Source: Octopus sinensis (Eukaryota). Taken from it: a stretch of DNA of 64,000 nt. Within the stretch, counting starts at the first letter, position 1, and every line of letters starts with the position of its first letter. The notes under the pieces were generated by a model that did not search any database, was not told the origin of the DNA, and worked only from the letters and a program-made list of their open reading frames with translations. Where the stretch lies: assembly GCF_006345805.1 (NCBI RefSeq), contig NC_043008.1, positions 76,260,001 through 76,324,000 on the forward strand, written 5' to 3'. Shown here one piece after another: positions 3,546 through 41,823 of this stretch. The position numbers and the translations under genes were made by a program.

Positions 3546-4747
3546 GTTCCTCACGTACGTTTGAGTGTCCTGGTTTGTAAAACCACATTATTGGATGTGC
3601 CAAGAGCAGCTGGAGGCCTAACCACGACGGATTATCAACAAAACACTTTATTGTCATTCGACATAGAAAGTGAAAAATAAATAAAATAATATAGAATAAA
3701 TAAAGTAATATAAAATAAATAAAGTAATAAAGAAAAATAAATAAAGTAATTAAAATATTCTAGAGATTGAGAGAGATATAAAGAAAGGCAGCCTGATGGG
3801 AAGACAGAGAGACAGTGAGAAAGAAAACAAAATATGGAAAAAGAAAACGAAAGAGAGGGAGAGAGTGGACAGGGATAATGACGATAGGCAATATGTTGTA
3901 GTGTATTGGAAACAAGCGCATCTATTTTTAATTATTAGAAAATAAATTGGAAAACAAATTTTAACTGAGATATGAAAAAAAAGTATGTGATTGGGTCATA
4001 AACATTTATGTAAGTAGACACTATAGGTAAGAATAGTTTAATTTGTATTTTCAATGCGAATAAATACAAAGTTACAAGGAGGTATAAAAGCATAGATTTA
4101 CACACACATGCTCATACATATATACATGCACACACACACTCACACAAACGCATACACACATATATGCATACAGACATACATATGCACACATGCACGCATA
4201 TGCATATATATGTAAATGGACATACATATATGTTGTATATACACGTGTGTGCGTATCAAGAGAGGGAAAGAAGGCAGATACTTTAGTATGTACTTTGCCT
4301 CTCTTTAAATGTTAAAGGCTTATCTAAGCCATTATTAAAACCAATTTCCGTCAACAGCATAAGGAATGAAGACAGAAAATGGATAGAAGAAGAAAAGATG
4401 GAGAGAAAAATAACGTGTCTGGATTAATGGTTGCACATTTTGAAAATATATGTGTGTGTTTGTGCGCGAGCGAGTGTGTATATACTTACATATGTATATA
4501 TAGATATAGATACTGATATATATATATACACGCATATATATATACACACACATATATATATATATATATGTATATGAAAAAAAGAATGAAAATGCTTTTT
4601 TTTAAATTAGGTACATTTAAATTTCTTTATATAAATACATTAAAAATGTTTTTGTCTTATATGCTTCGGCTGTTTTTCAACCTTATCAAAAATATGTACT
4701 TATATGAAATATTTAGAGAAAAAAATTATAAATAAAATTATCAAGTG

Positions 4748-6280
4748 TATTCTACGGTATTCTCAAAATCCACAAAAGCAGAAAAATAAGCTAGGCATCC
4801 AAAGAATGTACAGACATAATCATCAAATTCCCCTCTCCTAATGAACCCTTCCTCAAACATATCAAGAGCTACATTAGTGATGATCTGGACATGCTCAAAC
4901 ACCTCCTAAAAACTGTCAACGAGAAAATCCAGCTAGTATCCTTCGCCGTGGCCAACCTATATTCAAACATCCCCCACACCGTAGGAATAGAAGCAATCAC
5001 ATTCTGGTTAGACAACTACACCTATGGACTCCCCTCTCGCATCAAAAGAGAACTCATAATAGAAGGTTTGCGATTCATCCAAGAGAATAATTATCTTAAT
5101 AATGACTACTTCCGACAAAAATCGGGAACAGCAATGGGAACACGGATTGCGCCTTCTTTTGCGAACCTGGTAATGGGCTATCTCGAAATTAAACTATACC
5201 AGAAAACACTCGAGAAATATAGAAACTCCTTTTCAACCTACATGCAAATAAACTTAAAAAGATATTTTGATGACTGCTTCATCCTCTGGAATGGAAGTGT
5301 AGAAAAACTTAATGAATTCAAAACACTTCTATCCAGGAACAGCTACCGTTTTTAGATATCCTTATTAAGAAAATCGGGAACAAAATAGAGACAGATGTCT
5401 ATTACAAACCTACGGACTCGAAACAGTACCTGCCACTCGAGACATACCTGAATAATATCTCCTATTGTTTAGCTAAAAGAATATGCACAATAGTATCACC
5501 CGTTACAAATACCCGTTGCACACGACTCCAGGAATTAAAAGCCACTCTCATCAACAGGAATTACTCACAACCTTTAATCGACAATACGATCCAACGAGTC
5601 CTTAAATTAAATACACAAGAACTTAGACAACTAAGACCAAAGAAGGAAGAAAAATTGAAAACCTTGCCTTTCATCCCCACAAACAACCCACATAACAAGG
5701 CTTTCAACACTATGCTTCATACCACAGCTCTACTCAAGAGGGACCAAAGATGAATCAAATCCTCCAAACACAAACAATCATCAAAAGTAAGAGACAGTCA
5801 AAATCAATGAAAAGGATTTTAACCCAGGCCATATTACACTCAACAGTAACCACAAAACCGACAGTAAAAAGTGCGGGAGGCCCAAATGTGTTAACTGTAT
5901 AGAAGGATCGGAATACCGATTAGAAGGATCGGAATACCGATTAGAAGGATCGGAATACCGATTAGAACAAGGACAATATTTTACCATAAAAACTAACTTT
6001 ACATGTGCATCGGAGAATTTGATTACTTAATTACATGCAAACGGCAATATATTGGACACATAAAAAAAACAGCCTACTTCAGAAGATGTCGGTGTACAAA
6101 TCCCAAATGAGAATTCCGGAATACAAGACAAGATCTGTCAGTGAACACATAGACAGATGTGCATCCAATAAATATCTCGAATTCACAACTTTTCCATTGT
6201 ACAAATTCAAAGACAATGCTTGCCAAAATGAACGTATTTGCAAGGAAATGCATTTTATAAGTATCGACCGAGTCTAACTT
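4748..6280 (+). pseudogene. Penelope-like retroelement RT + GIY-YIG endonuclease, 5'-truncated and frameshifted
   Basis: Motifs FYGILKIHKS, LVSFAVANLYSNIPH, RQKSGTAMGTRIAPSFANLVMGYLE, KRYFDDCFILW, LPFLDILI..IETDVYYKPTDSKQYL, Cys linker KKCGRPKCVNC, and GIY-YIG C-terminus SVSEHIDRCA..FTTFPLYKF (ORFs 4891-5355 and 6035-6277). Confidence 0.9.
5900..5967 (+). repeat. 21-bp tandem repeat, 3.2 perfect copies (tagaaggatcggaataccgat)
   Basis: Units at 5900, 5921 and 5942, partial at 5963; in-frame (I/L)EGSEYR repeat in the PLE linker. Confidence 0.95.
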
Positions 6281-6305
6281 CTTTACGCTCGGAAACTATA
6301 TGTAT

Positions 6306-6822
6306 ATTACATCGAAAAATGCGAGCATGTAAAGTAATATTCTTAAGATTATAAACTTGTAAAAGTACAGGACAAGTTATTACACCTGTAAAAGTATAGG
6401 ACAATCTATTACTTCAAGTAAAGCAAAGAATAAGAAACTTTTTACTTAAAATATTGCTGCAAAGAATGCCAGTTCTAATTTATCACTCTTTGCAGTTCCA
6501 TCTATTAAATTTATTGTACAAAATTGTTCAGCTAATTTGTAAGTTTGTCTAATTAGTCACTTATTTCTGTATTTAAGGTAGTAAAGTAGCTAAATTCTAC
6601 TTAAATAAATATAGTGTTATTTCTAAACTATAATAAAATAAGTTTTAATATTCAAATTTTAACTTTAGCTGCAATATTTTAAGTAAAAAGTTTCTTAATC
6701 TTTACTTTACTAGAAGTAATAGATTGTCCTATACTTTTACAGGTGTAATAACTTGTCCTGTACGTTTTCAGGTTTATAATCTTAAGAATGTTACTTTTCA
6801 TGCTCGCATTTTTCTATGTAAT
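6306..6822. mobile_element. MITE/fold-back element with ~155-bp terminal inverted repeats
   Basis: 6306-6460 (attacatcgaaaaatgcgagcatg...acttaaaatattgc) matches the reverse complement of 6671-6822. Each arm holds two direct repeats tgtaaaagta(c/t)aggacaa...tattac. No ORF. Confidence 0.8.
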
Positions 6823-7382
6823 CCATGATTTTTCTAGGTATTGCTGTTATAGGATAGTTAATAATGCGTCAATAATTTAAGGTTTACCTTCTAAAATACT
6901 GAAAGATAATATTTCAATTTTTCCATGTTTCATTTAAATATATGTTGTAATTGAATTATTTATTAATGGCAGGGATTCTTACCATGTTGTTGGTTTCACC
7001 ATGGCTCACCAAAGTTACAAGCAAAAAGATTCCAAAACCATCCGTTACTAGGCTCACCTTAAGTAACCTAATTTTGCAATATTAAGAGGCCACATGAAGT
7101 CATTCAACTAAAAAAATTCCAATGATTCAGGGATTGGGAGGAACCCTTACCTCATCTTTTTCGAAACAAAATAAGGGATTTGCAGCATATTATGAGGTCA
7201 GGGTACTTGATTCCACACAAAAAAATCCTTTTTTTTTTCTTAGTGAAAATCGGGCGGATGTTAATATAGAATTTTATCATAATGTTGTTATTTAGCCTCA
7301 AATAAGCCCTGATACTGCAAATCTATCATCAAAGACATTCCAGCCTTCAGCAAACCATCTTTTCAGGGATAATGTAGGACAC

Positions 7383-7755
7383 TAGCACGCCGGGCGTAAT
7401 GCTTAGTGGTTTTTCGTCTGCTGCTACGTTCTGAGATCATATTCCGCCGATGTCGACTTTGCCTTTCATCTTTTCGGGACGCGCTGGGGTCGATATATTC
7501 AACTTAATCCGTTTGTCTGTCCTTGTTTGTCCCTTCTGTGTGTAGCCCTTTGTGCGCAGTAAACAAATAAGAAACTGAAAGAAGCCTGTCTTGTATATAT
7601 ATATATATATATATATATATACAAGCGGTTCAGCTTGTATAGAGGATAAGTACTAGGCTTGCAGAGAATGAGAGCTAGGGCCGATTTGTTTGGCTAAAGG
7701 CGGTGCTCCTGCATGACTGCAGGCTAATGACTGAAGCAAATGAAGGAATAAAAAA
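7383..7755 (+). mobile_element. SINE family 1 (partial, to ~7575) followed by a SINE family 2 3' fragment
   Basis: tagcacgccgggcgtaatgcttag...gtcgactttgcctttcatc, then aaactgaaagaagcc-(TA)n-...ggcggtgctcctgcatgactgc. Confidence 0.7.
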
Positions 7756-7789
7756 ATATTAAATGCATACACATTGTTAGAAGTATCAT

Positions 7790-8330
7790 TCTGTGGAATT
7801 CTCTGAGATAAAAGCTCATTTCCACTGTACTATACATTCTTCCTCTGGTGTAGTAGGTGGTTACGCTTTTCACATTTTCTAGACATTTCTCTATAGCCTC
7901 CTCAGTCTCAATTTTCTTTCTGGATAAGGACAGCTTTCTGTATACCACTGTCCTTCTCCTGATACTTTTCGTTACTTCCTCTGGAGGGGTCAGTCACAGA
8001 CTTCCCCCTCCTTCTGGAGCAACTCCCCGTGTCTTCCAGTCTCCCAGGCTTCTCGATGTTTCTTACTATCTATCGCACTTCCAATGTGCTTGTAGCGTTC
8101 GTCTCCCGCCACCGCAGCATAACTCCCAACATGTTCTGGCTAATATTCCATTTCAAAATTCTTTTCCTCAAACTGGGGAAAAAAACGTCAATAAAAAAAA
8201 GAATCCCGTAGGCGAATCCGCAGTAACAACAGAACACTGGGCTTTACACTGAACAATCAACAACTTCCTCTCGCAATCAAACTTATAAGAAGTGGTCCAG
8301 TCCATTCTCATCTGGGGGCGTCCTACTCTC
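7790..8330 (-). mobile_element. possible non-LTR retrotransposon 5' end / ORF1 fragment
   Basis: GC-richer, protein-like frame RRTVVYRKLSLSRKKIETEEAIEKCLENVKSVTTYYTRGRMYSTVEMSF. The resemblance to LINE ORF1 is from recall only; no diagnostic motif. Confidence 0.3.
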
Positions 8331-8763
8331 GCAAAACATTATCTATGGCAATCTAGGGGAAATATTTTCTAATTAAGCTCTGTCAAGCTAATGCATTTTC
8401 CAAAATTACCAGTTCTGTATTCAAATACTCACGAAATACGCGATTTTTGGGTGACTTTTTACGAAATTACTACAGATATATTATCATTAATGAATTTCAA
8501 ATTAAAATCAACTGAACTGTGGAAAACTAGCTGCTTTCCAGTACAGACTGGCAGTCGAGCATTTGCAGGCCATTCCTTTCACGGACGCTTTGGAACTTGA
8601 GAAACGTAAGCGAAGCAGAAAACGATTAGCAGAATAACACTTGGCATAGGTTTAGTGCATTCAAAATTGGCCAGATTGCTTGGTTAAGGGTCTCTGTGTG
8701 AGATTAAAGACTTTCAACTACGTCCTCTAACATACACACACGTGCAAGCGCGCTTATGTGTTT

Positions 8764-8800
<37 letters not shown>

Positions 8801-8805
<5 letters not shown>

Positions 8806-9057
8806 TAATAATAATAGGGAATAAATCCAAACTTACAGGGAAAAATTAGACTTAGGATTAAATCCAATTTTATAGTATAAATATATTATATTATATTATA
8901 TTATATTATATTAGAGATAAAACCACTATTAGGCAAATCAAACAGTGAAAAACATAAGCCAATACATAAAATTAATTTTAAAATATAAAAGTTAAAAATT
9001 AAAAAAATATTTAAATAATTTAAACTTATATATAATTTTAAATATATATATACAAAT

Positions 9058-9088
<31 letters not shown>

Positions 9089-10125
9089 GTATATTTTTAT
9101 ATTTATATATTATTATATTTATTATTTATATTTATTTATTTATTTATTTTTTATATAAATATCAAAAGTATTAAAAGTTTAATAAAAGATAAAGAGTAAA
9201 ATACTACGATCGTTTCATGGCTGTACCAATTCGAATAACAATAATCTAAATTCAATTAATAGTTCGTGTTATGGTTACAGTCAATATTCAGATTAATTGA
9301 AATATTTTTAAAATAAACAGAAATATTTAAACAATATTTTCAAGATATAAATAATATAATAATTTTACTTATAATAAACCATATTATCAAATTAGTAACT
9401 TAAAACTTTACAATTATGATTATATCAAAATCGGTTATAATGTTAAATATTAATTTTAATTTATAAGGTAAGAAACCCACCAATAATCTGATATATGTGT
9501 TAGTCTATATCTAATTACATAAATATTTAAAAATTTAAAAAAAGAAAAAAAATGACTATTATATATCAATTAATATTTAACATTATAATCGATTTTGATA
9601 TAATCATAATTGTTAAGTTTAAAGTTTCTAGTTTGATAATAGAGTTTATTATAAGTAAAATTATTATATTATTTATATCTTAAAAATATTGTTTAAATAT
9701 TTCTGATTATTTTTAACATATTTCAATTAACCTGAAGATTGACTGTAACCATAACACGAATTATTAATTGAATTTAAATTATTGTTATTCGAATTGGTAC
9801 AGCCATGAAACGATTGTAGTGTTTTACTCTTTATCTTTTATTAAACTTTTAATACTTTTGATATTAATATAAAAAAAATTATTAAAAAAAAATAAATAAA
9901 TAAATAAATATAAATTAATAAATATAATAATATATAAATATAAAAATATACATACATATATATATATATATTTGTATATATATATTAAAAATTTATGAGT
10001 TTAAATTATTTAAATAATTTTTTACTTTTTAACTTTTATATTTTTTAATTAATTTTATGTATTGGCTTATGTTTTTCACTGTTTCATTTGCCTAATAGTG
10101 GTTTTATCTCTAATTTAATAGAATA
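8801..10125. mobile_element. AT-rich fold-back element (probable PLE 3' repeat plus inverted copy) in (TA)n
   Basis: About 8905-9455 is the reverse complement of about 9569-10125 (e.g. ttagagataaaaccactattaggcaaat / atttgcctaatagtggttttatctctaa). Spacer about 110 bp; hammerhead-like motif in each arm. Confidence 0.8.
9725..9825 (+). ncRNA. type-I hammerhead ribozyme-like motif
   Basis: CUGAAGA 9732-9738; long helix II (tgactgtaacc/ggtacagcca); GAAA 9807-9810; cgattg-UA. The mirror arm (9205-9291, minus) has the perfect palindrome ACGATCGT. Helix I is weak. Confidence 0.55.
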
Positions 10126-10137
10126 TATATATATATC

Positions 10138-10172
<35 letters not shown>

Positions 10173-11765
10173 ATGCACGTGTGTATATATATATATACAT
10201 ACATACATATATGCATACACACATACACACATACACACACACAGACAAACACACACACACACATATATATATATATAAATTCTTATGCTTTTGCGGTTAC
10301 CAGATGATGACGAAAGTTAATAAATATGTGACTCAGAGCTGATATAATGTCGTACTTCTGGACGTTACGTGTTACTGTATTAATGTAGATTTTGATAATT
10401 AGGGTTGTCGCGTTCAAAGATATGAAGAGAAAAGTGAGCTAAACAGGATTTATCTTAATGAATAAAGGGGTGTATATTGACGAATTTGACAGTAAAGTGT
10501 TCACTCTGAGTATAACTGGTAACTTCTTCATGGATGTTCTTTCACGTTATTTAACTAAGGAAATTACAATTTCAAAAGACTAGTAGAAAATACGCAGATA
10601 TCGATGTATGTGTATTTATATATATATATGTATGTGTGTGTGTGTGTGTGTGTGTTCGTGTGTGTGTATGTGTGTGTGTATGTGTGTATGTGTGTGTATA
10701 CATTACGGATGTATATATATATATTTGTTATAATTATGTGTTAATTACTATTTCTATTATAAAACAAACGGTAATTTCCAGAACATTGATTAACTTGGCA
10801 ATTAACTGTGTTTTTATTGATGTAGTTTTCTTTTCTCTTAATATTTTTAAATATATGTTTCCGATTTATTTTTTATTGCAATCTTTATCCGTCAACGATT
10901 TCATATTATTTATTTATTGTTTCATTAGTGCTAACATTATTTGTATTATTGTCAATGCAGTTACCATCATAATCATCATCTTGAACATCATATGTAATGG
11001 CATACACTGTAAATTTAAAGTAGGAAGGAGAATGTGGGTGAAAAATTCTATTAGAAATGGTTCCTGAAATCATTGTTCTGAACGAAATAAAGCATTATAA
11101 GATTTATTTTGATATTGCACTCAGCGGAAACACAAAACAATTTGAGGAGTTTTATCATCGGTATTATAAGAAACAACTGACAAATACATAATGTTGTCTT
11201 TGTTCCACTTGTGATGTCAAGCAAGAGAGTCTGCAGAATGCTACAGATGAATGAACTTAGTGATTAAAGTGTTTAATTCTTCACGCTTGACTTGTTCTAT
11301 TGCTATTCAAAGGATTTAGATTAAAATGATATATCTACGAACTAAAACTGGTGTTCTTTGTCTGAAATCTGATATCGACCTATATCAGAAATGATTAATT
11401 AAGAAAGTAAATTAACATTGCTACATTGCTTTATTAAGTAAAGAGATGGGTGGAGCACTGCAGGAATATAATGAATCCTTTCCAAGTCCCAGTTACGTCA
11501 TTTTATGTTATAAGTTCATATCACACAAGGAGTGGCTTTCAGTTTTAGGTCGATACGCTGAAAGTTTATGACGTTCCTGCTAGTGGATCAGTTGCCAGTA
11601 TCCTGGTGTTAGATTTTTTGCATTTAAACTATAAAAATAGATCCACTGTCAGCTGTTAAACACACATATAAACAAACGCACACATACACACACTTACGCG
11701 CACGCACGCACAAGCACACACACACACATACGCACGCACACATATGTATATATATATATATATAT

Positions 11766-12655
11766 CTTCGTTTTAAGATCGTAAGTCAGAAAAAGAACAT
11801 ACTCTAAAATAAATAGAGCAGTTGTTTAATTTTAGATGTGCAACGTAATAATTTAGAGAAATACCATTGTTTTCATATCAAGCGTGAACTAGACATCTCA
11901 TCAGTTTCTCTAAACAATAACTGTTCTCTGCAAAAGATGTTTTTAAAAACACACGAACGCCGGTGATAGTTGAAGGAAAATTCCTGTTCAAAATTTTGAC
12001 TGAGCAAGTTATCTCTCTTTTCCAATTGTGAAGGAAAACTTTCCGAAAATGTGGACAATTCCCAACGGCTTCCGTCTAGGAGTTCGAGTGGCCTCCTGGC
12101 TCATGTGTGTTCATTAGGATGATACAGCTTTCTGCCATACACAATTTACATAGCTTGTTCCATTGCGATAGGGTCCACAAGTTTCTAATAATTTCCACCT
12201 GATGTTAAAGAGCGTCCTTTAGGTGCAAGTGTTTTGTATTGCGTCTCTCCGGCACACTGAAAGAAGATCTGTGGTTCTTCAGGCGAATTTTAAATTTAGA
12301 TTCCCATGATCCGATATAAATTTTAGCGTGTCCCTACGTTGGCATTGTTGTTGCTGTTAGTTGTGCTGCTTCTGTTTAAGAATACCTTTGCTTGGTACGC
12401 TGTAGCTTCGGTGTTGTATCGGCCATCTACTGGGTATTCATTTGCAATCCTGCATGAAAAACCTGCCTCTGTCTGTGGTTTAGGAGTGCTAAGTAATTTT
12501 TTCTTAACATTTGGTGCACAACTGAAAGATATCCTTAAATTATGCCTGTTAAAGCTCCTTCTATATTTGCGTGGTCGCGTGAAATGCTTATTCACCAACC
12601 TAAGGAAAGGTGATATTTTAACAGGACTTTTCCTTCAAATGGCAAACACTTGATA
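11766..12655 (-). mobile_element. Penelope-like element 3' fragment (thumb/linker + decayed GIY-YIG + 3' repeat)
   Basis: ORF 12323-12598 VNKHF..RKYRRSFNRHNLRISFSCAPNVK..SCRIANEYPVDGRYNTEATAYQAKV, followed by a frameshifted YIG region and WKLLETCGPYRNG. Ends at (TA)n 11748-11765. Confidence 0.8.
11852..11914 (-). ncRNA. type-I hammerhead ribozyme (canonical core)
   Basis: Minus strand reads UUUAGAGAAA CUGAUGA g AUGUCUAGU ucac GCUUGAUAU GAAA ACAAUGG UA UUUCUCUAAA, with a 10-bp perfect helix I and predicted cleavage after GUA (between 11862 and 11861). Confidence 0.8.
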
Positions 12656-16088: not shown

Positions 16089-16119
<31 letters not shown>

Positions 16120-16140
16120 ATTTATAGAGAGAGAGAGAGT

Positions 16141-17993: not shown

Positions 17994-18216
17994 CAATTGC
18001 GGCGTGGAAGGTGTTTACAAACCATTTAAAAACACACAAAAACCGTTAGATTCACTCAGCATTTAAATTTAATTTGTCGAAATATTTTCGTCGCTTTGAG
18101 ACCGCGACCTGTTCATTGACAAAATGGCTTATAAATACCTTCCACGATGCAATAGTTTTGCTTAAGCATACGATCTCAGATCAGGTCGCTTGCTATGCAA
18201 GTACATATCTGTAATG
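17994..18216. mobile_element. 223-bp non-autonomous insertion with internal inverted repeat and 10-bp TSD
   Basis: TATAAAATTA at 17984-17993 and 18217-18226; the insertion is absent from the right Tc1 TIR; 17996-18027 is the reverse complement of 18122-18153 (32 bp, 5 mismatches). Confidence 0.8.
18073..18123 (-). ncRNA. hammerhead-like motif with non-canonical 3-8 pair
   Basis: Minus strand UUUGUC a AUGAACA g GUCGC ggucucaaa GCGAC GAAA AUAU UU c GACAAA; helices I and II pair perfectly; helix III is the palindrome AAAUAUUU. Confidence 0.5.
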
Positions 18217-18430
18217 TATAAAATTATTTTACTTTTCACAGTTTAGGTAGAATTTTCTTCTCTTTCGAATGATACAGGCGTTATATATCTTTCTACAATC
18301 TGAATAAGTTTAATGCTCAATTAATTCAAATGATTAAAAATTGTCAGCCAAATAAGTTTAGGACCGTACCAACATTTATTTTGTTTAAATTGAAAATTTA
18401 CAGCACAAATGATCAACGAACAAAAAATTA

Positions 18431-19453
18431 CTAGTTGTATCTTGCTCCATAGCCATTATTTTGAAATATGGCCTTACAAAGGTGGGACATGAAGTTCGAC
18501 GAATGAGCACAAAAATCACTGGGAATGTTCTGCCATATTTCTTCAATAAAATTATATAATTGGGACAAATTTGTTTTTGTTTTGTTTTTTGTTTTTTTTT
18601 TGTTTTTTTAGCATGAACACTTCTAGAAACATAATTCTATAAATTTTCTATCGGATTCAAATCCGAGCTTTGCAGAGGCTACTCAATAACCACCATATTA
18701 TTACGCTCATGAACGGGGCATTAGTCTTACTGGAAAATAGATCCTGACGGCATCTGATTATTTAAATATGGCAGCACGTTTTCAGTTACTAATTGCAGAT
18801 AGCCTACACTGTTCAGTCTGCCATCAACCTTAACAATTGCACCAACACCTAAGCTGCTGAAGGCGACACACACCATTACCCCTACACACACATACACACA
18901 CCTCCTGCTTGCATGTTTTCTTGACACACTTAGGATGGAATTCTCGGACGGTGTCTAACATAAGTCTTTCCATCTGATCCAAAGATGCAGAAGTGGGATT
19001 CGTCGTTCCAAAACACTTTTGACCAGTCTTCGGCCGTTCATTCAATATGGTTTTTAGCGAACTTGACCCGCTTCTGCTGGTTCGTCTCAGAAATCATCCG
19101 CTTCTATGGAGCGATTCGGCTGAAAAGTTCAAATTCTTTTGGGCGTTTTTTGACAGTGTGTGGTGTAAAGCTGATGTCAGTTTTATCAGATAATTGCTTG
19201 AAAATTTCTACTGCTGTTAGCATCCGATTACCTTTAGAGAGCCTATGAATTCGCCGATCCATCTATACTGTTGTTTTTCTCGAAGCGCCCGTTCTTTGCC
19301 GATCTTTGTATTGGCCAGTGGCTTCCATGTTTGAACACAAGCCGTTTTGCTGCATTCTAATTGCTTACTAATGTTCATGAAGGACACATTTTGCTGATGA
19401 AGAAACACGAGCTTTGATCTAGTAACTAGGTTGATACTAGGACGCTATCCCAT
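18431..19453 (-). pseudogene. Tc1 (DD34E-type) transposase, decayed
   Basis: Hand translation: MG*RPSINLVTRSKLVFLHQQNVSFMNISKQLECSK..., KRVKFAKNHIE*TAEDWSKVFWNDESHFCIFGSDG, VMVCVAFSSLGVGAIVKVDGRLNSVGYLQLV..IFQ*D, QSSDLNPIENL; multiple stops and frameshifts. Confidence 0.88.
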
Positions 19454-19700
19454 AGCGAATTAATGTGTAACAATGCTCTGTCTTAAACTTATTTTGCCGA
19501 TAACTTCTAATCATTTGAAGTAATCGCACATTAAAATTATTCGAATTGTAGAAAGATATATAACATGTATCATATTCGAAAGGGAAAAAATATCTACATA
19601 AACTGTAAAAAGTAAAATAGTTTTATGCAGTTTTGCTTAAAATATATTAATGAAGGGATGGAATGTCATCATCGGTCTTAAACTGATTTTGACCGGTGTT

Positions 19701-19794: not shown

Positions 19795-20656
19795 TCTATG
19801 CAGAAAACATCATAAGAGCTGTGAAGTAGAACTACGACGGTGGTGTGCAGATTGGCGGAGAAAGGCTGTGCAATCTGAGATGGGCCGATGACACAACCCT
19901 CATAAGTAACAGCAACGAGGAATTGCTGCCCATGATACGCAAAGTGAAAGACATGAGGGCACAAAGTGACCTATTCCTGAATGTAAAGAAGACAAGAATC
20001 TTGGTGGTGGATAAGTACAGGACAGACCAAGGTCACTTCACCTTAGACGAAGAGATGATTCAGGAAGTGGATGATTTTGTTTACTTAGGATCCACAATCA
20101 GCACCAGTGGATCAAGTACACCAGAAATACGGAGAAGGCTCGCGATAGCGAGGCAAGCGGTACAAGATATGGAGATCATCTGGAAGAGTCGTGGCGTGTC
20201 AATGCTGCCGAAAATAAGGCTACTTCGGGTTAACGCTTTCTCTATTGCGATGTACGGCTGTGAGTCATGGACAATGTTAAAGGCAGATGAGAAAAGAGTG
20301 AGCGCTTTTGAAATGTGGTGTTACCGCAGACTCATTAGAGTGTCGTGGACGGAGAGAAGGACGAATAACTGGGTACTAGAAAAGCTCTGTTACGAGATGA
20401 TGCTTCGGTGAAACATGAAGCGGAAGCTACGGTTCTTTGTCCACGTCATGCGCCGGGAGCGAACGATCATAACTGGCAAGGTGAACGGCAGACGTAAAAG
20501 AAGCAGACCACCCACTTCTTTGCTGAAAGGCATCACAGCCACAGGATTGTCTTTATTCTCAGCTGTCAATGGGGTAGATGACAGGGGAAGGTGGCAAGAC
20601 ATCGTGATGACCGAAGCATCACATAGTTCGATACCTGACTTGGATGATGATGATGA

Positions 20657-20660
<4 letters not shown>
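19795..20660 (+). pseudogene. RTE-clade LINE reverse transcriptase 3' fragment with (GAT)n tail
   Basis: ORF 19845-20411: NLRWADDTTL, LNVKKTRIL, VDDFVYLGS, EIRRRLAIAR, MYGCESWT..AFEMWCYRRLIRVSWTERRTN; continuation 20415-20640; gatgatgat tail at 20644-20660. Confidence 0.92.
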
Positions 20661-20701
<41 letters not shown>

Positions 20702-21873
20702 TATATACATATGTACATGAGTTCATATATATATGTGCATGTATGCATTTGTCTAAATCTACCACACACAGAACTATTGTGAATATGTGTATTATATTTT
20801 AATAGCCTATTCCCATACTACCACAACCACCACCATCACCACTTTTAACATTAGGCTCTTGATCACATGTTACCAACTCCTGATACTTTGGTCAAACCAA
20901 TAATAACCCACGTCACCTCTTCACCACTTCACCACTTCCCAGTTATACTTTTCCTACCTGTGTAAGCACAGGGCATTTCTTTCTACATATTCCATTTAGT
21001 TGCAGACTTAAATTAATCTACCTCTCTTCATCTTTGTTTATTTGTTTATACCTTTCTATAATCTTTGATTAAATTTTCCTGCATCACATCTATATTCACT
21101 TCTCATATATATTTATTTCCCATAAAGTTTCACTGCACTCTCCCGCAGATAGAACAGACTGCCACTAAAATATTGGTTGCAGACAGCTTGACGAGAATTG
21201 TATCTATTACGAAAATATTCTTGAAACAGCTGTTAGGATAATATGCACAACGCTTTTTTAGTTTAAATATTTTCCATGTGATGACTCGCTTCTACCTATA
21301 AAACTATGATACATCAGTGCTACGGACTTATTTTCAGCTTCATCCGGGTGTCTATAAGTGTACATCGCAACTATTATGAACACCCCTTCGTGCAACTTTC
21401 ACTGATCTGTGATTTATACTTCCTTAAGCATTTCTTTCTCTATATATACTCAACAAATATATCTTATGATATGACCCGATATATTTTGTTGCCTCTCTAT
21501 CATTTTATCCTATAGGTATCAGCTTGATTGATCGATACATTGTCTATATCCAACCCTCATTTAGGCAGCTACTAAATTCCTGCATGCATTCGTGATTAAG
21601 CACGAATTCGGCCTGAGTACGAATTGTATGCACCTATAATCTTATGATACAGATATGTGTGTTTATGTATACATACATACATACACATACATAATGCGTG
21701 TGTATTGGGTATGACTTGTAATTAAGAAGTTTTCCTGGCAGTCAGCTAATTCCGGTTTTCGGTGGGCTATTTAGTACTCATGAGAGTACATTGATGGTCA
21801 TTATATTAAGAAAAGTGAATATAATGTGTGGATGGACAATGCATATTACTGGTTAATACTCTACTAGGAAGCA

Positions 21874-26092: not shown

Positions 26093-27775
<1,683 letters not shown>

Positions 27776-29289
27776 TCAAAGAATCAGAAAAATTTCGGTA
27801 TTTTACAAAATATAGGGATGGAGAATATAGAAATAATTTCATATTTATATAAGTTTCTATACTAATTTTATATATATTTATATTTAATTGATGAATAGTA
27901 ATTTTTTGGTATTAATGAGTTAAATTAAAGGAATGTGCTAAAAATTTCATATATTTTCTATATGCTAATAATCTTAGAATATATCTCTTGTATTATAAAA
28001 TAGATAGTGAAATATATCAGTATGGTTCTGTATAGGTTGAGTGTGAACCCAATAGAAATGTATTATCAATAAAAGGATACAGTGAGCAAATAAATAAGGT
28101 AAAATGTTGTAAAATAAAAGTAAGGGAATTTAAATGAGTATATTGAAAAATAAATATGAATTATTGTAGAATATTATAGATAAAGGGTAGAATAGATGTG
28201 TGTTCTAAAAACTTATTATAGAATATACCTAGCTTATTTATATTAATAAGTGAGGTAAGCTGTTATAAGAAAATCTCTTATAATTTTATAATTTCTAGAT
28301 TATAATTAATATTTACTTATCATGGGATTTGTCATAAATGACTAGTGTCTAATATCGGGTAAAGAAATGGTCAATCTATTGCATAAAAGTTATATTATTA
28401 ATAAGACTTATATAAAATTTTGGGTTCTATTATAGATTTAAGAAAAAGTTATTATTATTCCATATATGATAATTTATATTTATTAATTGGAACTTAGAAA
28501 ATATTATCTTCTTCTTTATTTATAATTTATTTATAAAGCTTTCTAATACATACAAAGATCATGAGGGTGGGGTTGTTTTAGAGAGATAGAAACCAAATAA
28601 CCTAGATAGTATTATCTATTCTTTATCAGGTTTTGAATATTCATTAAGGAGAATTAGAAGAAGCTTTATGATAATATTCCTAGTAAATAAGGTATTAATT
28701 GGCACACATATCAAAATCTTAAACATATAATGGAAGGGAGGCAACCAAGATGTAAGTTTCTAAAATTAGAAACATTTAAATTTAGTATTAAGAATGAAGT
28801 GTAGTTTTATGGAGTATAATAATTTAGGCTACTTAAAGGTAATATTCATAATATTGAAAAAAAAGAATTAGGTGGAGTAGAATTCCTGCAGAAATAGATA
28901 TGGAAATTACCAATCCTTTAAGACTTATTGTGGATTAGGTATACAACTTAATAATTTTATTAGATATATAGAATTTATGTAATAATTATAGAAATTTAAA
29001 AACAATTTTATTCAACTTTATTCAATTTGTTTATGTTAAAACATTTTTTAATAACTATTGTTGATTAAATAAAAATAGTAGGTTATATTATTTCCTTATT
29101 AGATTTTAAAAAACATTAAGATCTAAATTTCGGAACAAGACGCAACAAAAATTTGAGGAAAATAAAAATAAGTGGAAATTTTGACGATGATTGGGTTAAA
29201 TTATAAGGCACAAAAAGAAAATGGCTCTCCCCAGACACAACACAACCTATTGTTAGGTTCTGTTATTATTTTATTGTATTTGTATCATA

Positions 29290-29570: not shown

Positions 29571-29595
29571 TACACACACACACACACACACATAC

Positions 29596-29629
<34 letters not shown>

Positions 29630-29631
<2 letters not shown>

Positions 29632-30433: not shown

Positions 30434-30496
<63 letters not shown>

Positions 30497-30514
30497 TTAG
30501 TTGTGGCTTGCACA

Positions 30515-33270: not shown

Positions 33271-33372
33271 GCTTTTTCTATGTGTGTATATGCATATATG
33301 TGTATTCATATGTATGTGCGCATGCATATATATGTATGTATATGTAGACGTATGTATGCATGTATATATGCA

Positions 33373-33419
<47 letters not shown>

Positions 33420-34155
33420 AATTTTTCTAAGTTTCTATGTAGGGAAGTAAATATATGAGCTAGCAAGCCAATATAAAAAATACATTTCTATCAGCAAACA
33501 TTCCAAAATTAACCATATTTTTTCTCTCTGCTATCATCTCCTTTTTATCAAAAGATATGACTCTTAAACCTCCTTAACACCACCCCCACACACACAGACA
33601 CGCCTAAACTCATCTTTTACATAGAAAATTATTGAAGTTTATCCTTATGAAATTAAGATACTTGATTCAGGCATATGAAAAGAATTTGTAAAACATCTGA
33701 CGATTATGTTTTCCCCAAAGGTCAACTATTCAAATGGAACCAGCAAGAGGGCACTTTTACAAGCCATTCGTACAAAACTCTTTAAACACCCAACCACCTC
33801 CCAACTCCACTCTCAATCCATTATCTTGTTTTTATCATTTACTGCTTTCTTTCAGCTCTTGTTCCTCTACACACTTTCATTCCCACACTGAACAAGCCCT
33901 GTCCCCATTTCATACAGACCCAAATCTTTTATACGTAGAATCACACGGCACAACACAACCTAAGATCAGTTTGACAATCGCTGCCGACAAATGCGAGAAA
34001 TATCTCCAGAAAAGTTAACAAGGAATCTTTCAAAAAATCACTCCACCGAAGTTAATAAAGAACTTATTAATTCTAGAAACCAAACTGTAAAATTGTATTA
34101 TTAAAAATTAAATTGGCTAGAACTGCCAGTGAAGTCATTCTCTTCCTTTTTCAAC
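33420..34155 (+). mobile_element. unclassified interspersed repeat (homologue of 25420-26070)
   Basis: See 25420-26070; flanked on both sides by microsatellites. Confidence 0.7.
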
Positions 34156-34226
34156 TATGTGTGCGCGTGTATACATGCATATATACATACATACATACAT
34201 ACATACATACATACACACACACAGAC

Positions 34227-34262
<36 letters not shown>

Positions 34263-34880
34263 AATATTTTCAGAATGAAATAAAAAACCAAGGCTGACAA
34301 GATTATAGGACATTTTTAAATGGAAGATCTCACAGCTGTTTCCAGGATACGGTGTGAGAAGATGGTGAAGCAATAGTTAATTTAGATATGATACGAAATA
34401 GAGAGTGAAGTGGATGCATGAAAATAGATGTGAGATATACAGGGATTTTGCATTTGTAGATCCATTATTTAGACAGAATGGTATAAAGTGACCTAAAAGT
34501 AGGGAATGTATTTGTAAGATCAAATCGAAAATAAAGAAAAGAGTAAAAATAGAAGAAAAAAGAGAAAAAAGGAAGAAAAGAATAAAGAAAAGAAAGAAAA
34601 AAGAAAAACCAAGGACGGAGATAATAAGGGAAAGTTTACCAGTTAGTAGACAGTCAAGATAATTTGAAAGTAGGAATGAGGAGATGAGAGTGATTGAAAG
34701 AGAACGGTATTAGAGTGTAAAAAGATCGGAGGGATGGGGTGATAGAGTCAGAGGTATAAAAAGTTAAGGAGTGTCAGTTATGTAATGATAGAGTCTACGT
34801 GATGGGGCAGAGAGAGGGGTAGAAGTATGGAAAGAAGAATTTAGGAATATAGATTAGGGGGTTGGACAGATCAGTACTTA

Positions 34881-34925
<45 letters not shown>

Positions 34926-35501
34926 TGTTTATACATATAAATATCTATATATACAACTCGTAGTCATATGTATATGTGCATATGCACACCCATATATACG
35001 TGTATCTCTATGTATTATCGCCCCTATTTACGCAGGTGTACATATCTTGCATACATACATACATTCACACATACACATATACATACATACATGCACTTAC
35101 ATACATATACACGCACATATACATGCACGCATATACACACGAATATAATTAGATGGCTGTGATATTCGAGTATGAGTGAGGAATTAGATAAGTATTAAGA
35201 GTTAAAATATAGATTTATAAAATTATTGGGATTATCTAACGGGTATTGTTGAAATATACTGTATGGTCGTTTAGGCGTTTGGATTTGTGGTAGAGTTTGA
35301 ATGTGTGAAAAAAGTGGTGGTTGCATATGCTTAGTGCCTCATCATGTTTATTTAGCAGTGCTTTAGAGTTGTGTAATAGATTCAGGACAGTGCATTCGTA
35401 AATTACATTATATCTTCTGCAATGGGTTTGTAACGGGCAGATGATCCCAGGACGGCAATTACAATTAGGTGAATTTTGGGGACTGTGTTCAGAAATAGAA
35501 G

Positions 35502-35953
35502 AATTGCAGAAGATATAATGTACTTTACAAATGCACTGTCCTTAATCTATTACACAACTCTTACAGCCATGTACATAGGATCAAACAAATATTTTAAGCA
35601 ATGATATGACGCTCACCTCCATTATTTTAGATACGATAAACATAGTAAATCTACATTCGGCAACCACATACATCATCTCAAAAATACAAATATACCCTAT
35701 ACTCTATCATGGTCCATACTGGACTCGGGTCTTCCCTACCTTGGTCAACGTTCAACCTGCAAACCTTGCCTGAAGGAGGCACTTCACATATTAAAGCACA
35801 GCACTCCAGCACTGCTAAATAAACATAATGAGGCACTGAGCATATGCAACCATCGATTTTCTCACACATTCAAATTCTACCACAAATCCAAATGCCTAAA
35901 CGACCATACAGTATCTTTCCACAATACCTCTTTGGTAATCCCAGTAACCTTAT
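35502..35953 (+). pseudogene. PLE GIY-YIG endonuclease remnant
   Basis: NCRRYNVLYKCTV (frameshift) AMYIGSNKYFKQ*YDAHLHYFRY..STFGNHIHHLKNTNIPYTLSWSILDSGLPY..TCKPCLKEALHIL..LLNKHNEALSICNHRF. Confidence 0.85.
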
Positions 35954-37002
35954 AAATCTACATTTTAACTCTTAATCTCTTTCTAATTCCTCACTCATAC
36001 TCGAATATCATAACCATCTAATTATATTCCTGTGTATATGCTTGCATGCATATGTGTGTGTATATGTATGTGTGTGTGTGCATGTATGTATGTGTGTATG
36101 TGTGAATGTATGTATGCAATGTATGTATACTTGCGTATACAGGGGCGATAATACATACAGATACAAGTATATATGAGTGTGCATGTGTACATACACACAT
36201 GACTACGAGTTAAATATGTAGATATTGATATACATAAACATCTGTATAAATATATATATACATGCCTAATATATAGATATGTATACGTATTCACATATCT
36301 ACTTTCTTCTCTTAGTAAGCACTGACCTGTCCAACCACCTAATCTATATTCCAAAATCTTCATTCCATACTACTGCCCCTCTCTCTGCCCTATCACTTAG
36401 ACTCTATCACTACATAAATGACACTCCTTTACTCACTCCCTCTCTCTCTATCACCCCCATTCCTTTTATCTTTCTCTCTATATCACCCTCATTTCCCCAC
36501 TCTAATACCTTTCTCTCGCTATCACCTTCATCTCCCCATTCTAATACCTTTCTCTATGCATTACTCTCATCTCCCCATTCCATCTTTCAATTTATCTTGT
36601 CTGACCACTAACTGGTAAATGTCTCCTTATTATCTCTCTCCTTGTTTTCTTTCATTTCTTTATTTCTCTCTTCCATTTTTTTCCTTTTTTTTCTCTCTTT
36701 TCTTTATTCGTCTCTTCCTGTTTTCGATTTGACCTTACAAATACATTCCCTACTTTAAGTCTCTTTAAATAAAATCTTTGATTCAATAGCACTGTGTACA
36801 AACTCTATACTTGGAATGACCAATTTTTAAATACCATTGGATTTTACTCACAAGGTATTGGAATCTTATGTGTATACCATTCTGCCTAAATAATGAGTCT
36901 ACAAATGCGATGTCCCTGCATATCTCACATTTATTTTCATTGCTTCACTCTCTATTTCCTATCTTATCTGAATTAAGTATTGCTTAACCTTTCTCTAACA
37001 CC

Positions 37003-37052
37003 GTCTCCGATGATGGGATATACTATAAATATCCTGGAAACAGATGTCAGAC
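37003..37052 (+). ncRNA. type-I hammerhead ribozyme, U4C core variant
   Basis: GUCU CCGAUGA UGGGAUAU acuauaa AUAUCCUG GAAA CAGAUG UC AGAC. The mirror arm at about 34326-34349 has palindromic ACAGCTGT but lost the 5' half by deletion. Confidence 0.72.
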
Positions 37053-37268
37053 CTTCTATTTATAAATGTTCTAAAATCTTCACGGCCTTGGTTTTGTTAT
37101 CTCATTCTGAAAAAAATTTTTCTATATATACACACGCTGATATATGACCTACGTTGGACTCCTTATTCGGAAAATTACCGAACCTGGAGCTTAACTATGG
37201 TCTATCCATAGCACTTACTCAGCATTACCTGACACCTTTGGGTCATACTTACACCATTACCTGTCATA

Positions 37269-37320
<52 letters not shown>

Positions 37321-38798
37321 TATATATATACTTATACATATGTCTAAATATATATACACACATATATACGCACACACATATATATGTATATATGTATATA
37401 CATGTATACACACATATATGAATATAGATGCACACATTTATATGGCCAAACAGGTACTTGAAGTGGTTGCTGTTGACCTGTGGAATGATTTATATTATGT
37501 AGGAAAATCGATAGAGTACAAAGAACTTGCAGAAGGAGTGGAAAATCACAATTTTGGACAATGCAGTGTCCTTCCTCTGGGAAAGTCGAAAGCTGGGGCT
37601 TTAAACTCTGCTACACACACACACACACACTCATACGCACACGCACACAGACACACACACATACACACACATGCACACACACATACGCACACATATCGTA
37701 TATGTGTGCATAGACAACACATGAAGTTCGTTTCGGCTAACATATAAGTTTTGTTGAAAGTGTCAGTGAAGTTCCAGTGACAACATATTTGATTATGAGA
37801 ACAACTTTACAAGGTACAAGTACAAAATGCCGTTTGCTTTATAAAACTGCAGCCTGACTCTAACATTATTTGTAAGTATTCCAATGTATTTTTCTAATTG
37901 CATGAAAGACCCTTTTTCTATCAGAAATTTGATAAAATAGTATTCGACGCCATTTCACAGAAATTATACGACTTTTCAAAGATCAGATTACGACTTGTGG
38001 TCTATATGTAGCGTATGAAATATTATACACGAATGTAATTTCAAAAATGTTAAATTAAATTATAAAGAAAATACTTCCTTTCGACAAAACAATTATTTCC
38101 TTTCACTATTATGATATGTGAAATTTTTCATATGCCACTTACTTCAAAATTTAATTCGTGGTATCACACACACAGACATACACACGTACACACGCACATA
38201 CACTCGCATACACACATACACATGCACATATACATGCTCGCATACAGATCCATACCCAAAAACAACATACATACTGACATATGCGTGCACATACATATCA
38301 AGTAAAACAAAAGGGAGAATTAAAGTTCATGTTTCTCTATTGTATAGTTTGGCAGTCATCTATAAACCACATAAATTAAATTCTACGTTGATTACTTTTC
38401 TATTAAAGATATGAAAATGAATTCAAGAACAATATTTTCACATTGTCATCTTCAGTTGTATACCAGTTATAATATTGTTTCTGATATTGATTTTGATATT
38501 AACTTAAGTTTAGAAATTATTCCTTCTTTATGAACTAATTAAAATTCATGTAGAATCTTTCAATTCATCAGCGTACCAATGTGTATATAAAGGATTCTAA
38601 TTTGCCAAAATTAATCATTGAAAATTTAAACATATTAAATATTTCGGGATAAATAAGAATACATATTTTTATCAATCTAATAAATTAACGGATCATTTTA
38701 TCGAAATACACACACATTTACACACGCATGCACGCACAGATGTATGTCTATGTGTGTGTGTGTGTGTGTGTGTGTATGGAGGGATATAGTGTAGTGTA

Positions 38799-39280
38799 TT
38801 AGGTTGTCAAGAAAGTTCTTGCAGAATTTAAAATTTTGGTTTTAAATTAAGTGTTTTCAAATTAATTTCCGCTAAATTACTTTGACTTTATATATCAGTT
38901 TAAATCCCGTTTTTGGCTCTATCTAATCGTGTTACTCTTTTTCTTTTTGAATAATTACGCCACTTTTACGGAACGTTGAATACAGCATGGACAAAAAGCA
39001 AATTCGAACAATATTCCAGTTCAAGCTAGGCCGAAAAGCTGCTGAAACAGCTTGCGATATCAACGATGCGTTTCGTCCAGGAACCACTACTGAATGTACA
39101 GCACAACGGTGGTTCAAGAAATTTCGTAGCGGTGACGAGAGTCTTGAAGAGGATAAGCGTAGTGGTCGGCCATCGGATGTTGAAAACGATCAACTAAGAG
39201 CCTTAGTCGAAGCCAATCTACGCACAACTGTTCGAAAGCTTGCTTCTGGATTAGACGTAACGTATACGACAATTTCAAGC
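38799..39280 (+). mobile_element. mariner transposon 5' fragment (Hsmar1/SETMAR-like HTH transposase N-terminus)
   Basis: TA-ttaggttg TIR start at 38799; ORF 38987 MDKKQIRTIF.FKLGRKAAETACDINDAF..TAQRWFKKFRSGDESLEEDKRSGRPS..TTVRKLA; truncated before the catalytic domain. Confidence 0.88.
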
Positions 39281-39422
39281 AAATTTCAAGCAAATTCACG
39301 TCAGAAAACACGGTTGAAGCTACATGCCAAGGGCAGAAATCACGTGCTTACGTGTGGAAATTTGTGTGTTTTTTTTACTATAAATAAATGAAAGAATGGA
39401 GTCGAATGACGATTTATCAAAA

Positions 39423-39521
39423 TTCCTTTATTCTCGACATATGTTTCGAAGACTGCATATTCTTAATTCCGAAGGAATAAAGGGTGCATTATGCCGCCTT
39501 CACATCAGGAAAGACAAGGAA
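39423..39521 (-). ncRNA. type-I hammerhead motif, A9U variant (left arm, sense to the GIY-YIG frame)
   Basis: Mirror of 41725-41823; core CUGAUGU, helix II GAAGGC/GUCUUC, GAAA CAUAUG UC. Confidence 0.68.
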
Positions 39522-40050
39522 CTTATGTCAGCACCATGACGAACAAAAACGTTTAGATGACTGCCCACACGGAGTCCATAGTGATAATGAGTGTTTCTTT
39601 AAAATATTCCGTTATAAGCAGTGACGTCAAAATTGGTTGGATGGAGAAGATTCTAAAAAGTTCAAGAGTTCAAAAATGGTTGGAAGGGGAAAGTTCTAAG
39701 AATAGGAAGGTGACAGAGTGCAAGTCGTATGTATGGGGATGTGCCTATATGTGTGTATGTATATAACTGTATTCGTGTCTAAGTGTGTGTGTGTGTGAGC
39801 GTGATTGTGTATGTGGGGAGATAAATGCCAAATACATCTAGTGGTGAAGTGACAGGTTTGTGTTTGTGTGTTTGATTGTGCTTATGATAGAGAGAGGGAG
39901 AGAGAGAGAGGTAGAGAGACAAAGGTAAAACATACCCCAACGAATTTGGTAGTAGCCTACATGTAACGGAGTATAAAAAAATTTGTCTATGGTGGTGTTG
40001 TAGAAGTGGAACCAAATTATTAAATTCAAGGAGGTTATCTATATTAATCA

Positions 40051-41034
40051 TCATTCATATGAGTGGAAGGTGTGTTTCTGCCAGTGCACGCACCTATAGG
40101 ATTTTTCTACCATTGTGTTTACCAAAGGGAATTTGGCGAAAAGTATATAGAAAAGCTCGGAATTACAGACGCCACAAGATTTTCTGCCCTTATCAAAAGG
40201 AAAGGATACAGACAATATGGACCATTCCAGCTTGAAAGTTATATTGCTGTCCTTAAGACGCCAAACTAATTTACTTAGTCCTGTACTTTGTTGTTTTCTC
40301 TTATCTCGGAAAGTTGAATAATGATTGGAAATCCTCTGGGATAATTTAGAAGTAGTCGCCCCAATATAGAAGAAGACACCGGTACCGGAAGAAATTTTAC
40401 ACTGGTAAATGGAATTTCTAATTTTGGAATTACTGGACAAGAACTTTAATCTGTTAGGGTTTACCTCCGAGACTAAGACGGAGTTTTTATTGTTATGATT
40501 GGTGTTAATATCATTGCTAGCACTGACCACTATACTATTCATATTATTGTTATTATTATTAATTGTACTATCGCCGGCAATATCCCTGACTATAGAAATG
40601 CTGCCGTTGTTATCATCAATACTACCACTGTTATTAGAAATGCTGTCGTTGTTACCACTAACACTACCACTGTTAATAATCCGACTAATATTATTATTAA
40701 TATTACCATTGTTAATGCCAACGTTGTTATTAATGTTGCTATTATCAATACTATTTCTATTATTATTATTGTATGTTTGGTTGGAATTGGTAAGAATAGT
40801 GTCGTAACTCCCGGGTGAAGAATCCTTATTTAGCAGCTTGTTATGGGAGGCAATAATTTGCGATAGATTTCTAGTGTTAGAGAATGCAATCCTTACCTTA
40901 TGCGAATTGATAGTAGAGTAATACCTAGAATTCCTGGGAAAGTTCCTAGCTACGGCTTCACGGAACTGCAAAGGAAGGTTTGACTTGATTTGTTTTCCGA
41001 AAGGTATGACAAACCAGATATAGTTCTTTGTGGA
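40051..41034 (-). CDS. PLE-type GIY-YIG endonuclease with RT-thumb linker remnant and long Asn-rich insert (stop-to-stop open frame; listed ORF 40051-40971)
   Basis: KNYIWFVIPFGKQIKSNLPLQFREAVARNFP..INSHKVRIAFSNTRNLSQIIASHNKLL (PLE linker); NSIYQCKI..FFYIGATTSKLSQRISNHYSTFR..STGLSKLVWRLKD..WSIL..CGVCNSELFYIL..LVN..CVHW. No RT domain and no natural start codon; expression unproven. Confidence 0.7.
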   Translation of the reverse strand, partial: STKNYIWFVIPFGKQIKSNLPLQFREAVARNFPRNSRYYSTINSHKVRIAFSNTRNLSQIIASHNKLLNKDSSPGSYDTILTNSNQTYNNNNRNSIDNSNINNNVGINNGNINNNISRIINSGSVSGNNDSISNNSGSIDDNNGSISIVRDIAGDSTINNNNNNMNSIVVSASNDINTNHNNKNSVLVSEVNPNRLKFLSSNSKIRNSIYQCKISSGTGVFFYIGATTSKLSQRISNHYSTFRDKRKQQSTGLSKLVWRLKDSNITFKLEWSILSVSFPFDKGRKSCGVCNSELFYILFAKFPLVNTMVEKSYRCVHWQKHTFHSYE

Positions 41035-41724
41035 CTAAGAATTGTTCAGTTACATTAAAGGGAATATTTATTTCTGTGCTGGAAAATTGGGGTTGGTTGT
41101 CGATTGCCTCCCCTGGTCCGTAAATTATTTTTCTTAAGTATAGTGGTGCCGACGTTGTTAGAGCTGAAATCATTATTCTCACTATTTCTATTGTTATTAG
41201 TTTTCTTATCCTGAGAAGCATATATTTTTTATACTCCGTTACATGTAGGGCTACTACCAAATTCGTTGGGGTATGTTTTACCTTTGTCTCTCTACCTCTC
41301 CCCCTCTCTCTCTCCCTCTCTGTATCATAAGCACAATCAAACACACAGACACAAACCTGTCACTTCACCACTAGATGCATTTGGCATTTATCTCCCCACA
41401 AACACAATGACGCACACACACACACACACACATAGACACGAATACAGTTATATACATACACACACATAGGCACTCAATCTCATTAGCAAAAGCAAACAAC
41501 AACGCATCCCCATACATACGACTTGCACTCTGTCACCTTCCTATTCTTAGAACTTTCCCCTTCCAACCATTTTTGAACTCTTGAACTTTTTAGAATCTTC
41601 TCCATCCAACCGATTTTGACGTCACTGCTTATAACGGAATATTTTAAAGAAACACTCATTATCACTATGGACACCGTGTGGGTAGTCATCTAAACGTTTT
41701 TGTTCGTCATGGTGCTGACATAAG

Positions 41725-41823
41725 TTCCTTGTCTTTCCTGATGTGAAGGCAGCATAATGCACCCTTTATTCCTTCGGAATTAAGAATATGCAGTCTTCGA
41801 AACATATGTCGAGAATAAAGGAA
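41725..41823 (+). ncRNA. type-I hammerhead motif, A9U variant (right arm)
   Basis: UUCCUUgucUUUC CUGAUGU GAAGGC-agcaua...uaugca-GUCUUC GAAA CAUAUG UC GAGAauaAAGGAA; helix III palindrome ACAUAUGU. Confidence 0.68.

Follow-up and report, generated by a model that had tools for sequence, protein, structure and literature searches.

Do the aberrant cores of the hammerhead-like motifs in one stretch of the Octopus sinensis genome reflect the decay of single copies, or are they the property of whole repeat families? The stretch, hereafter the window, comprises 64,000 nucleotides (assembly GCF_006345805.1, contig NC_043008.1, positions 76,260,001 to 76,324,000 of the forward strand); it has a GC content of 34%, microsatellites and inverted repeats are plentiful in it, and the source genome measures 2.7 Gb. 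A preliminary description had listed seven core strings in the window, placed them in 3' repeats of Penelope-like elements (PLEs) and proposed that recurrent changes at normally invariant positions are family-level variants. All seven strings are found at the places given, each position number corresponding to the low end of the motif, and the eight motifs of the window are type-I hammerheads of PLE terminal repeats belonging to seven families, labelled F1 to F7 by their order along the window. Four of these families carry family-wide core variants, namely U4C in two of them, U3-A8 in one and G3-C8 in one.

In order to count core states by family, the 20-30 best loci were pulled for each and the core columns of the alignments were scored. 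As best matches are biased towards the query, exact patterns in which the tested positions were left open were also run genome-wide (for F4, F5 and F6 the first 100 matches were counted by hand), and the reversed-pattern controls gave no match every time. The three-way layout of helix I, core, helix II, GAAA, helix III and UH had been claimed for at least six families; it is present at family level in all seven, above shuffles. G5, G12, A13, A14 and the A15.1-U16.1 pair are fixed in each of them, and H17 is not G in the family alignments. The tertiary pair between positions 3 and 8 is Watson-Crick (C-G, U-A or G-C) in the majority of copies of every family, with minor copies carrying G3·G8 or U3·G8. 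Judged by the consensus C3U4G5A6NG8A9, the family cores are non-canonical in F1 (U3-A8), F4 (G3-C8), F5 and F6 (both C4), and canonical in F2, F3 and F7. The G10.1-C11.1 pair occurs together with a bulged 9a in F4 and without the bulge in F1 and F7, and is missing from F2, F3, F5 and F6.

The F4 hammerhead of the window (18073..18123, minus strand; bulged G9a, 5-bp helix II, helix III AAUAUU, H17=U) has the core AUGAACA, whereas the family core is GUGAACA. Its A3 is a private G-to-A change, seen in one of 100 copies and not the state of the family, and the swap of the 3-8 pair had been overlooked. G3 and C8 are each present in 19 of 21 aligned rows; the exact pattern has 3,136 matches, the first 100 of which comprise 89 G3-C8, 5 G3-U8, 2 C3-C8, 2 G3·G8, one A3, one U3 and no C3-G8. 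More than 3,000 copies naturally carry G3-C8. An additional unpaired A in front of G3 was considered and rejected: a C at 1.1 is enriched only among matches to the window copy (6 of 22 rows), and as it is not listed at 5% across contigs from four runs labelled with four other organisms, A2.1 of F4 pairs with U1.1. In those contigs no F4 difference of at least 5% is listed at core, GAAA or UH positions, a comparison that carries less weight for G3, as this base is only about 7 family bases away from where the compared stretch begins; the differences listed inside the motif affect loop II, CpG sites and a single wobble-compatible position of helix I.

Relatives of F4 are encoded at five metagenome loci. 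Three of them, distant ones with 33-36% endonuclease identity, reach far enough to be compared; in each, the endonuclease is followed by a hammerhead that has C3-G8, shares the bulged G of F4 and forms a helix II of 5 bp. Between F4 and these outgroups, helix II shows double compensatory changes at two pairs in a MAFFT alignment and at a third pair in a hand alignment; none of 500 shuffles reaches the observed 9 cells, a significance that is inflated by related rows. MAFFT gapped the outgroup cores, and the count covers helix II and not the 3-8 pair. Within F4, a G3·G8 sub-lineage with distinct 3' flanks makes up 9 of 24 long copies and 11 of 71 copies overall, and C3-G8 is absent from the 71-copy set. 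The order of G3·G8 and G3-C8 was not recovered from a tree in which 44 of 68 branches are open. The G3·G8 copies (L352, L363, L364, L366, L367 and L368) lie mostly on contig C20 as independent insertions, and L363 has a long open endonuclease frame.

The proposal that U4C is a family-level variant was upheld in both F5 and F6. The F5 motif (26361..26407, minus strand, core CCGACGA) is a broken copy that lacks 6 nt including the UH site, while the F6 motif (37003..37052, plus strand) has the core CCGAUGA, with H17=A in the family. C4 is found in 26 of 30 aligned F5 rows and 31 of 37 F6 rows. In the exact patterns, the first 100 of 1,438 F5 matches read CG in 82, CA in 8, TG in 6 and other letters in 4, and the first 100 of 1,647 F6 matches read CG in 67, TG in 17, CA in 8, TA in 2 and other letters in 6. 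The two products of CpG decay, TG and CA, do not differ significantly in number (p=0.79 for F5, p=0.11 for F6); C4 is therefore the ancestral state of both families, and reversion under selection is unsupported as a source of their U4 copies. U4C also holds across the diverged subfamilies of F5 and F6. As the two endonucleases are no closer to each other (28% identity) than to that of canonical F3 (37% and 33%, respectively), U4C probably arose twice, once in each family. Both families combine C4 with an A at 9a opposite a variable letter at 11.1.

The core UUGAUAA of F1 (4653..4695, minus strand), read from a decayed copy with GAAG in an inverted arm upstream of a reverse transcriptase (RT) remnant, likewise reflects its family, with U3 in 28 of 28 and A8 in 25 of 28 aligned rows; the exact pattern has 11 matches, all with U3, of which 9 have A8 and 2 have G8. 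The suggestion that A9U is a family trait did not survive. It had leaned on the presence of A9U in both arms at F7 (39431..39513, minus strand, and 41733..41815, plus strand), and these arms, 98% complementary, belong to one insertion. A9 is present in 35 of 36 F7 rows, the sole other U9 being the second arm of the window locus, and the family core is canonical CUGAUGA.

A relaxed type-I structural scan of the window recovers five of the eight motifs, and four reach a score of at least 13, where 12 shuffles gave 0.08 on average; the motif at 9732 is missed through its weak helix I, and those at 26361 and 4648 are damaged. A search of the window with Rfam gave no hammerhead family among the 150 matches listed out of 248 (E<=10). 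As an independent sample, 120 arbitrary 10-kb stretches (1.2 Mb) were scanned with two core changes tolerated, which gave 52 hits against 9.3 in shuffles (10 were run). By class, with shuffle means in brackets, these include 17 canonical cores (0.0), 6 G3-C8 (0.1), 6 A6U (0.3), 5 U4C (0.0) and 5 U3-A8 (0.0), while 13 singleton cores are at about shuffle level; a number of hits pair up as the arms of a single insertion, and a few may have arisen by chance. The 3-8 classes enriched in the sample are all Watson-Crick (C-G, G-C and U-A), and non-pairing classes are not above shuffles. Since 22 of the 39 clear hits have variant cores, in four classes, against 17 canonical ones, standard descriptors undercount, and the earlier supposition that CUGANGA searches miss variants is borne out. 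The window itself seems locally rich in PLE ends: it holds eight hammerheads in 64 kb, where the 1.2 Mb sample gave about 40 clear hits, under differing scan settings.

The A6U hits fall mostly in one abundant family with the core CUGUNGA, which lies outside the window and has 15 of its 27 distinct copies (L291, L224, L232 and L283 among them) in the sample. Position 6 is U in 23, C in 3 and A in one of these copies, N7 takes all four letters, G8 and A9 are present in all 27, and N17 is A in 17, U in 7, C in 3 and G in none. A related family, F8, is a minimal hammerhead also found outside the window (L093:1262 and 13 other copies). It is mixed at position 4 (U4 in 8, C4 in 6) with no A5 decay, which suggests that both its U4 and C4 subfamilies were active; in view of this mixture it was dropped as a third fixed U4C family. 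Other families (L071, L227, L050, L064, L151, L095 and L344) have a short CG-rich helix III with U3-A8, U3·G8 or C3-G8; some of them look related, and a path from C-G through U·G to U-A may run through them.

The attribution to PLEs is direct for five families through their proteins (F1, F3, F4, F5 and F7), by adjacency for F6, and without such a tie for F2, where no PLE open reading frame (ORF) was found in 18 loci. PLE proteins are encoded upstream of the hammerhead on the sense strand at 7 of 24 F1, 10 of 20 F3, 6 of 30 F5 and 15 of 30 F7 loci, counts that include the window copy where it applies. The upstream ORFs contain RT and endonuclease in F1, the RT thumb and endonuclease in F4, and endonuclease in F3, F5 and F7; a CxxC-type linker is seen in F1 and F4. 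Long F4 copies consist of a repeat-rich untranslated region, the RT thumb and a GIY-YIG endonuclease with its CxxC linker, which rules out a stand-alone short interspersed nuclear element or miniature inverted-repeat transposable element; copies of F4 end with or without a tail of about 50 nt. Inverted second copies accompany the hammerhead at 12 of 30 F6, 9 of 30 F7, 9 of 24 F1, 5 of 25 F4, 5 of 20 F3, 2 of 30 F5 and 1 of 18 F2 loci. The hallmarks of endonuclease-bearing PLEs (5'-truncated copies, inverted arms and a 3' tail at one end) were observed. Non-LTR retrozymes, which are tandem non-coding monomers, were rejected as an identity, the copies being dispersed, solo or inverted, and tied to PLE ORFs.

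In the window, a broken F1-type ORF (4795..6274, plus strand) retains RT, a Zn-finger-like linker and endonuclease remnants (RVT_1, E 6.7e-7). An F3 ORF remnant (12326..12634, minus strand) lies upstream of the F3 hammerhead (11852..11914, minus strand), which has a canonical core and belongs to a family variable at N7 and 9a. A GIY-YIG-type endonuclease remnant (27382..27783, minus strand) lies about 1 kb upstream of the F5 motif, and the F7 ORF (40051..41034, minus strand) ends in a C-terminal GIY-YIG domain (PF01541, E 0.0033, short of Pfam's cut-off). For F6, an endonuclease remnant of the inverted-repeat element that carries the motif (35605..35955, plus strand) is linked to the family by adjacency, with the shared family sequence beginning at 36050, about 95 nt further on, and the ORF link seen in the window only; at 34330-34365 (minus strand) stands the left arm of this element without the core and half of helix II. 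The F2 hammerhead (9727..9823, plus strand, canonical CUGAAGA, short helix I, no ORF link found) has an inverted twin with the damaged core CUGAAUA (9200..9296, minus strand). The motif had been described as following the endonuclease on the sense strand; this is the case at 11852, 26361, 37003 and 39431, and not at 41733 and 4653, where inverted arms are antisense to the neighbouring ORF.

Helix III forms no hairpin in the monomer and is self-complementary in every family, with self-duplex energies from -0.2 (F4) to -11.1 kcal/mol (F6). The palindromes first listed needed correction: AAAUAUUU includes A14, so that helix III of F4 is AAUAUU; ACAGCUGU, present in the F6 family and in the other arm at 34332, is absent at 37003, where ACAGAUGU stands; and ACGAUCGU is found in the 9200 arm only. 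Copies that start within 3 nt of the predicted cut site number 3 of 113, 0 of 59, 1 of 45, 1 of 46 and 0 of 34 in five copy sets, and many of the copies that do not reach the end of the query stop 25-65 nt upstream of that site. With no accumulation of 5' ends at the predicted cut, the inserted copies come from uncut RNA. Many F4 copies (L341-L368) start about 60 nt upstream of the cut site, near a pyrimidine-rich CAG/AUG junction that resembles a splice acceptor or transcript start; in the three outgroups, too, an AUG stands ahead of the hammerhead.

From these sequence patterns, we lean towards the reading that the variant families are slow ribozymes, likely assisted by dimerisation or protein and kept by selection on master elements. 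As it lacks the length to fold on its own, helix III would use its palindrome to pair one copy with another, and the element's own protein would probably help the dimer. The U-A and G-C swaps would preserve the 3-8 tertiary pair, U4C would weaken the uridine turn, and the other core positions would be maintained by selection on master elements. Since an uncut hammerhead is what reverse transcription has to read through, poor cleavage would carry a low cost and may even be advantageous. In agreement with parts of this, the hammerhead of the Anolis Poseidon element PAc cleaves only with protein, C3G/G8C gives partial rescue, and insertion draws mainly on uncut RNA (PMC11167929). In mutagenesis of the CUGA turn the 3-8 swap is the sole rescuing double mutant, others remaining low (PMC9901934), and U4 contacts the A6-N7 phosphate; U4C lowers activity while still supporting a viroid (PMC3088659).

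Several observations weigh against slow but selected ribozymes. The F4 outgroup consists of three loci, one with a damaged 3' half; the helix III self-duplex of F4 is close to zero; fold z-scores are weak (0.04 to -2.9), and folding energies gave no discrimination, 2 of 12 inputs having poorly chosen ends; four families lack G10.1-C11.1; the inverted arms lie on opposite strands and so provide no dimer partner within one transcript; and the G3·G8 lineage of F4 transposed although a single C3G abolishes cleavage in PAc (PMC11167929). The spread of this lineage can also be told as support for a hammerhead fold kept as a structural signal, for protein binding or RT positioning, with catalysis lost or dispensable in the variant families. 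The same is true of the copies that do not begin at the cut site, of insertion in vitro that needs no cleavage and the lack of RNA ends at the site for the lizard PLE (PMC11167929), and of U4C and A6U falling where mutants show low activity (PMC9901934). We nevertheless consider this rather unlikely, since compensatory 3-8 swaps and the avoidance of G17 in the A6U family (0 of 27) are what selection for an active conformation predicts, and G5, G12, A13, A14 and A15.1-U16.1 stay fixed in all seven families.

Families grow from few masters, and therefore fixation among copies alone is not selection; each variant might be a damaging change in one master copy, amplified by chance and devoid of functional meaning. 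The G3·G8 lineage shows that a mismatch can hitch-hike, and the mixture in F8 fits such an origin. Set against it, G3-C8 requires two changes that restore pairing, U4C recurs in two families with distant endonucleases, their diverged subfamilies included, U3-A8 appears again in several further families, and non-pairing 3-8 classes are not enriched over shuffles, so that we give chance little credence. It is more improbable still that the variants have full activity in their natural setting, compensated by a second change, a dimer partner, a metal ion or a protein. A6C moves the preference to Mn2+ instead of killing activity (PMC7151607), and the shared A at 9a facing 11.1 in F5 and F6 could be read as such a second change; yet F8 has C4 with a normal G10.1-C11.1, and pairwise mutagenesis of a type III hammerhead, in the available text of PMC9901934, reports no rescuing partner for position 4.

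PLE hammerheads, their dimers and U3-A8 are already known, and the novelty of the C4, U6 and G3-C8 families is provisional. Diminished-stem III hammerheads of PLEs, with a short palindromic stem III and cleavage as dimers, were reportedly described by Lünse, Weinberg and Breaker in 2017. In the literature searched, natural G3-C8 was not found, only laboratory mutants, nor was A6U as a natural variant; Lünse 2017, Hammann 2012 and Arkhipova 2017 might already contain these variants. The minimal hammerheads of metazoan PLEs (Cervera & de la Pena 2014, PMC4209133) are alike in being type I, in lying in the pLTRs (the terminal repeats), in the extra nucleotide after A9, in the palindromic helix III and in inverted pairs separated by 100-700 nt, and they include a U3-A8 family known from Schistosoma (~1,300 hits); in contrast to them, four families here lack G10.1-C11.1. 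Their 56 representatives in the supplementary alignment, with a core fixed by the descriptor, show C3-G8, U3-A8 and one U3·G8, and no C4, G3-C8 or U6. PAc (Frangieh et al. 2024, PMC11167929) shares with F4 the pLTR hammerhead, a tail giving two 3' ends and insertion from uncut RNA, but C3G/G8C is an engineered rescue there, whereas in F4 it is natural and high-copy. U3-A8 covariation, the viroid U4C variant (Perreault et al. 2011, PMC3088659) and A6C of Bcep176 (PMC7151607) are described as rare instances from viroids, phages and bacteria, while here entire high-copy families are marked by U4C and A6U; neither G3-C8 nor A6U occurs in the available passages of these two papers.

Besides, the window contains another hammerhead-like remnant at 21180-21240 (plus strand; UUGACGA followed by GAAACAGCUGU, with poor helix I), a broken Tc1-like transposon that adjoins the F4 copy (18215-19629; ~150-nt inverted ends, HTH_SB E 0.009), a 3' fragment of the RT of a long interspersed nuclear element (19830-20722, plus strand) and a mariner fragment (Mos1 HTH; 38951-39391, plus strand).

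The in vivo role of PLE hammerheads was called a mystery in a 2020 review (PMC7761336). Family-fixed natural variants in one genome supply matched pairs of variant and revertant with which cutting, slow cutting and fold alone could be told apart, and a natural G3-C8 whose outgroups are canonical supports the 3-8 tertiary pair from the evolutionary side. The undercount by standard descriptors may bear on PLE families reported without hammerheads (PMC8557442). A bolder proposal, which we find possible but doubtful, is that PLE hammerheads have been selected to be slow since reverse transcription needs uncut RNA: attenuating cores would have become fixed independently in the most successful families of this genome (U4C several times, A6U, and a first natural high-copy G3-C8 via a surviving G3·G8 intermediate), and about half of the intact hammerheads in such genomes would escape CUGANGA searches. 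Altogether, the core variants suggest that slow cutting is tolerated or favoured in these RNAs, which likely cleave themselves.

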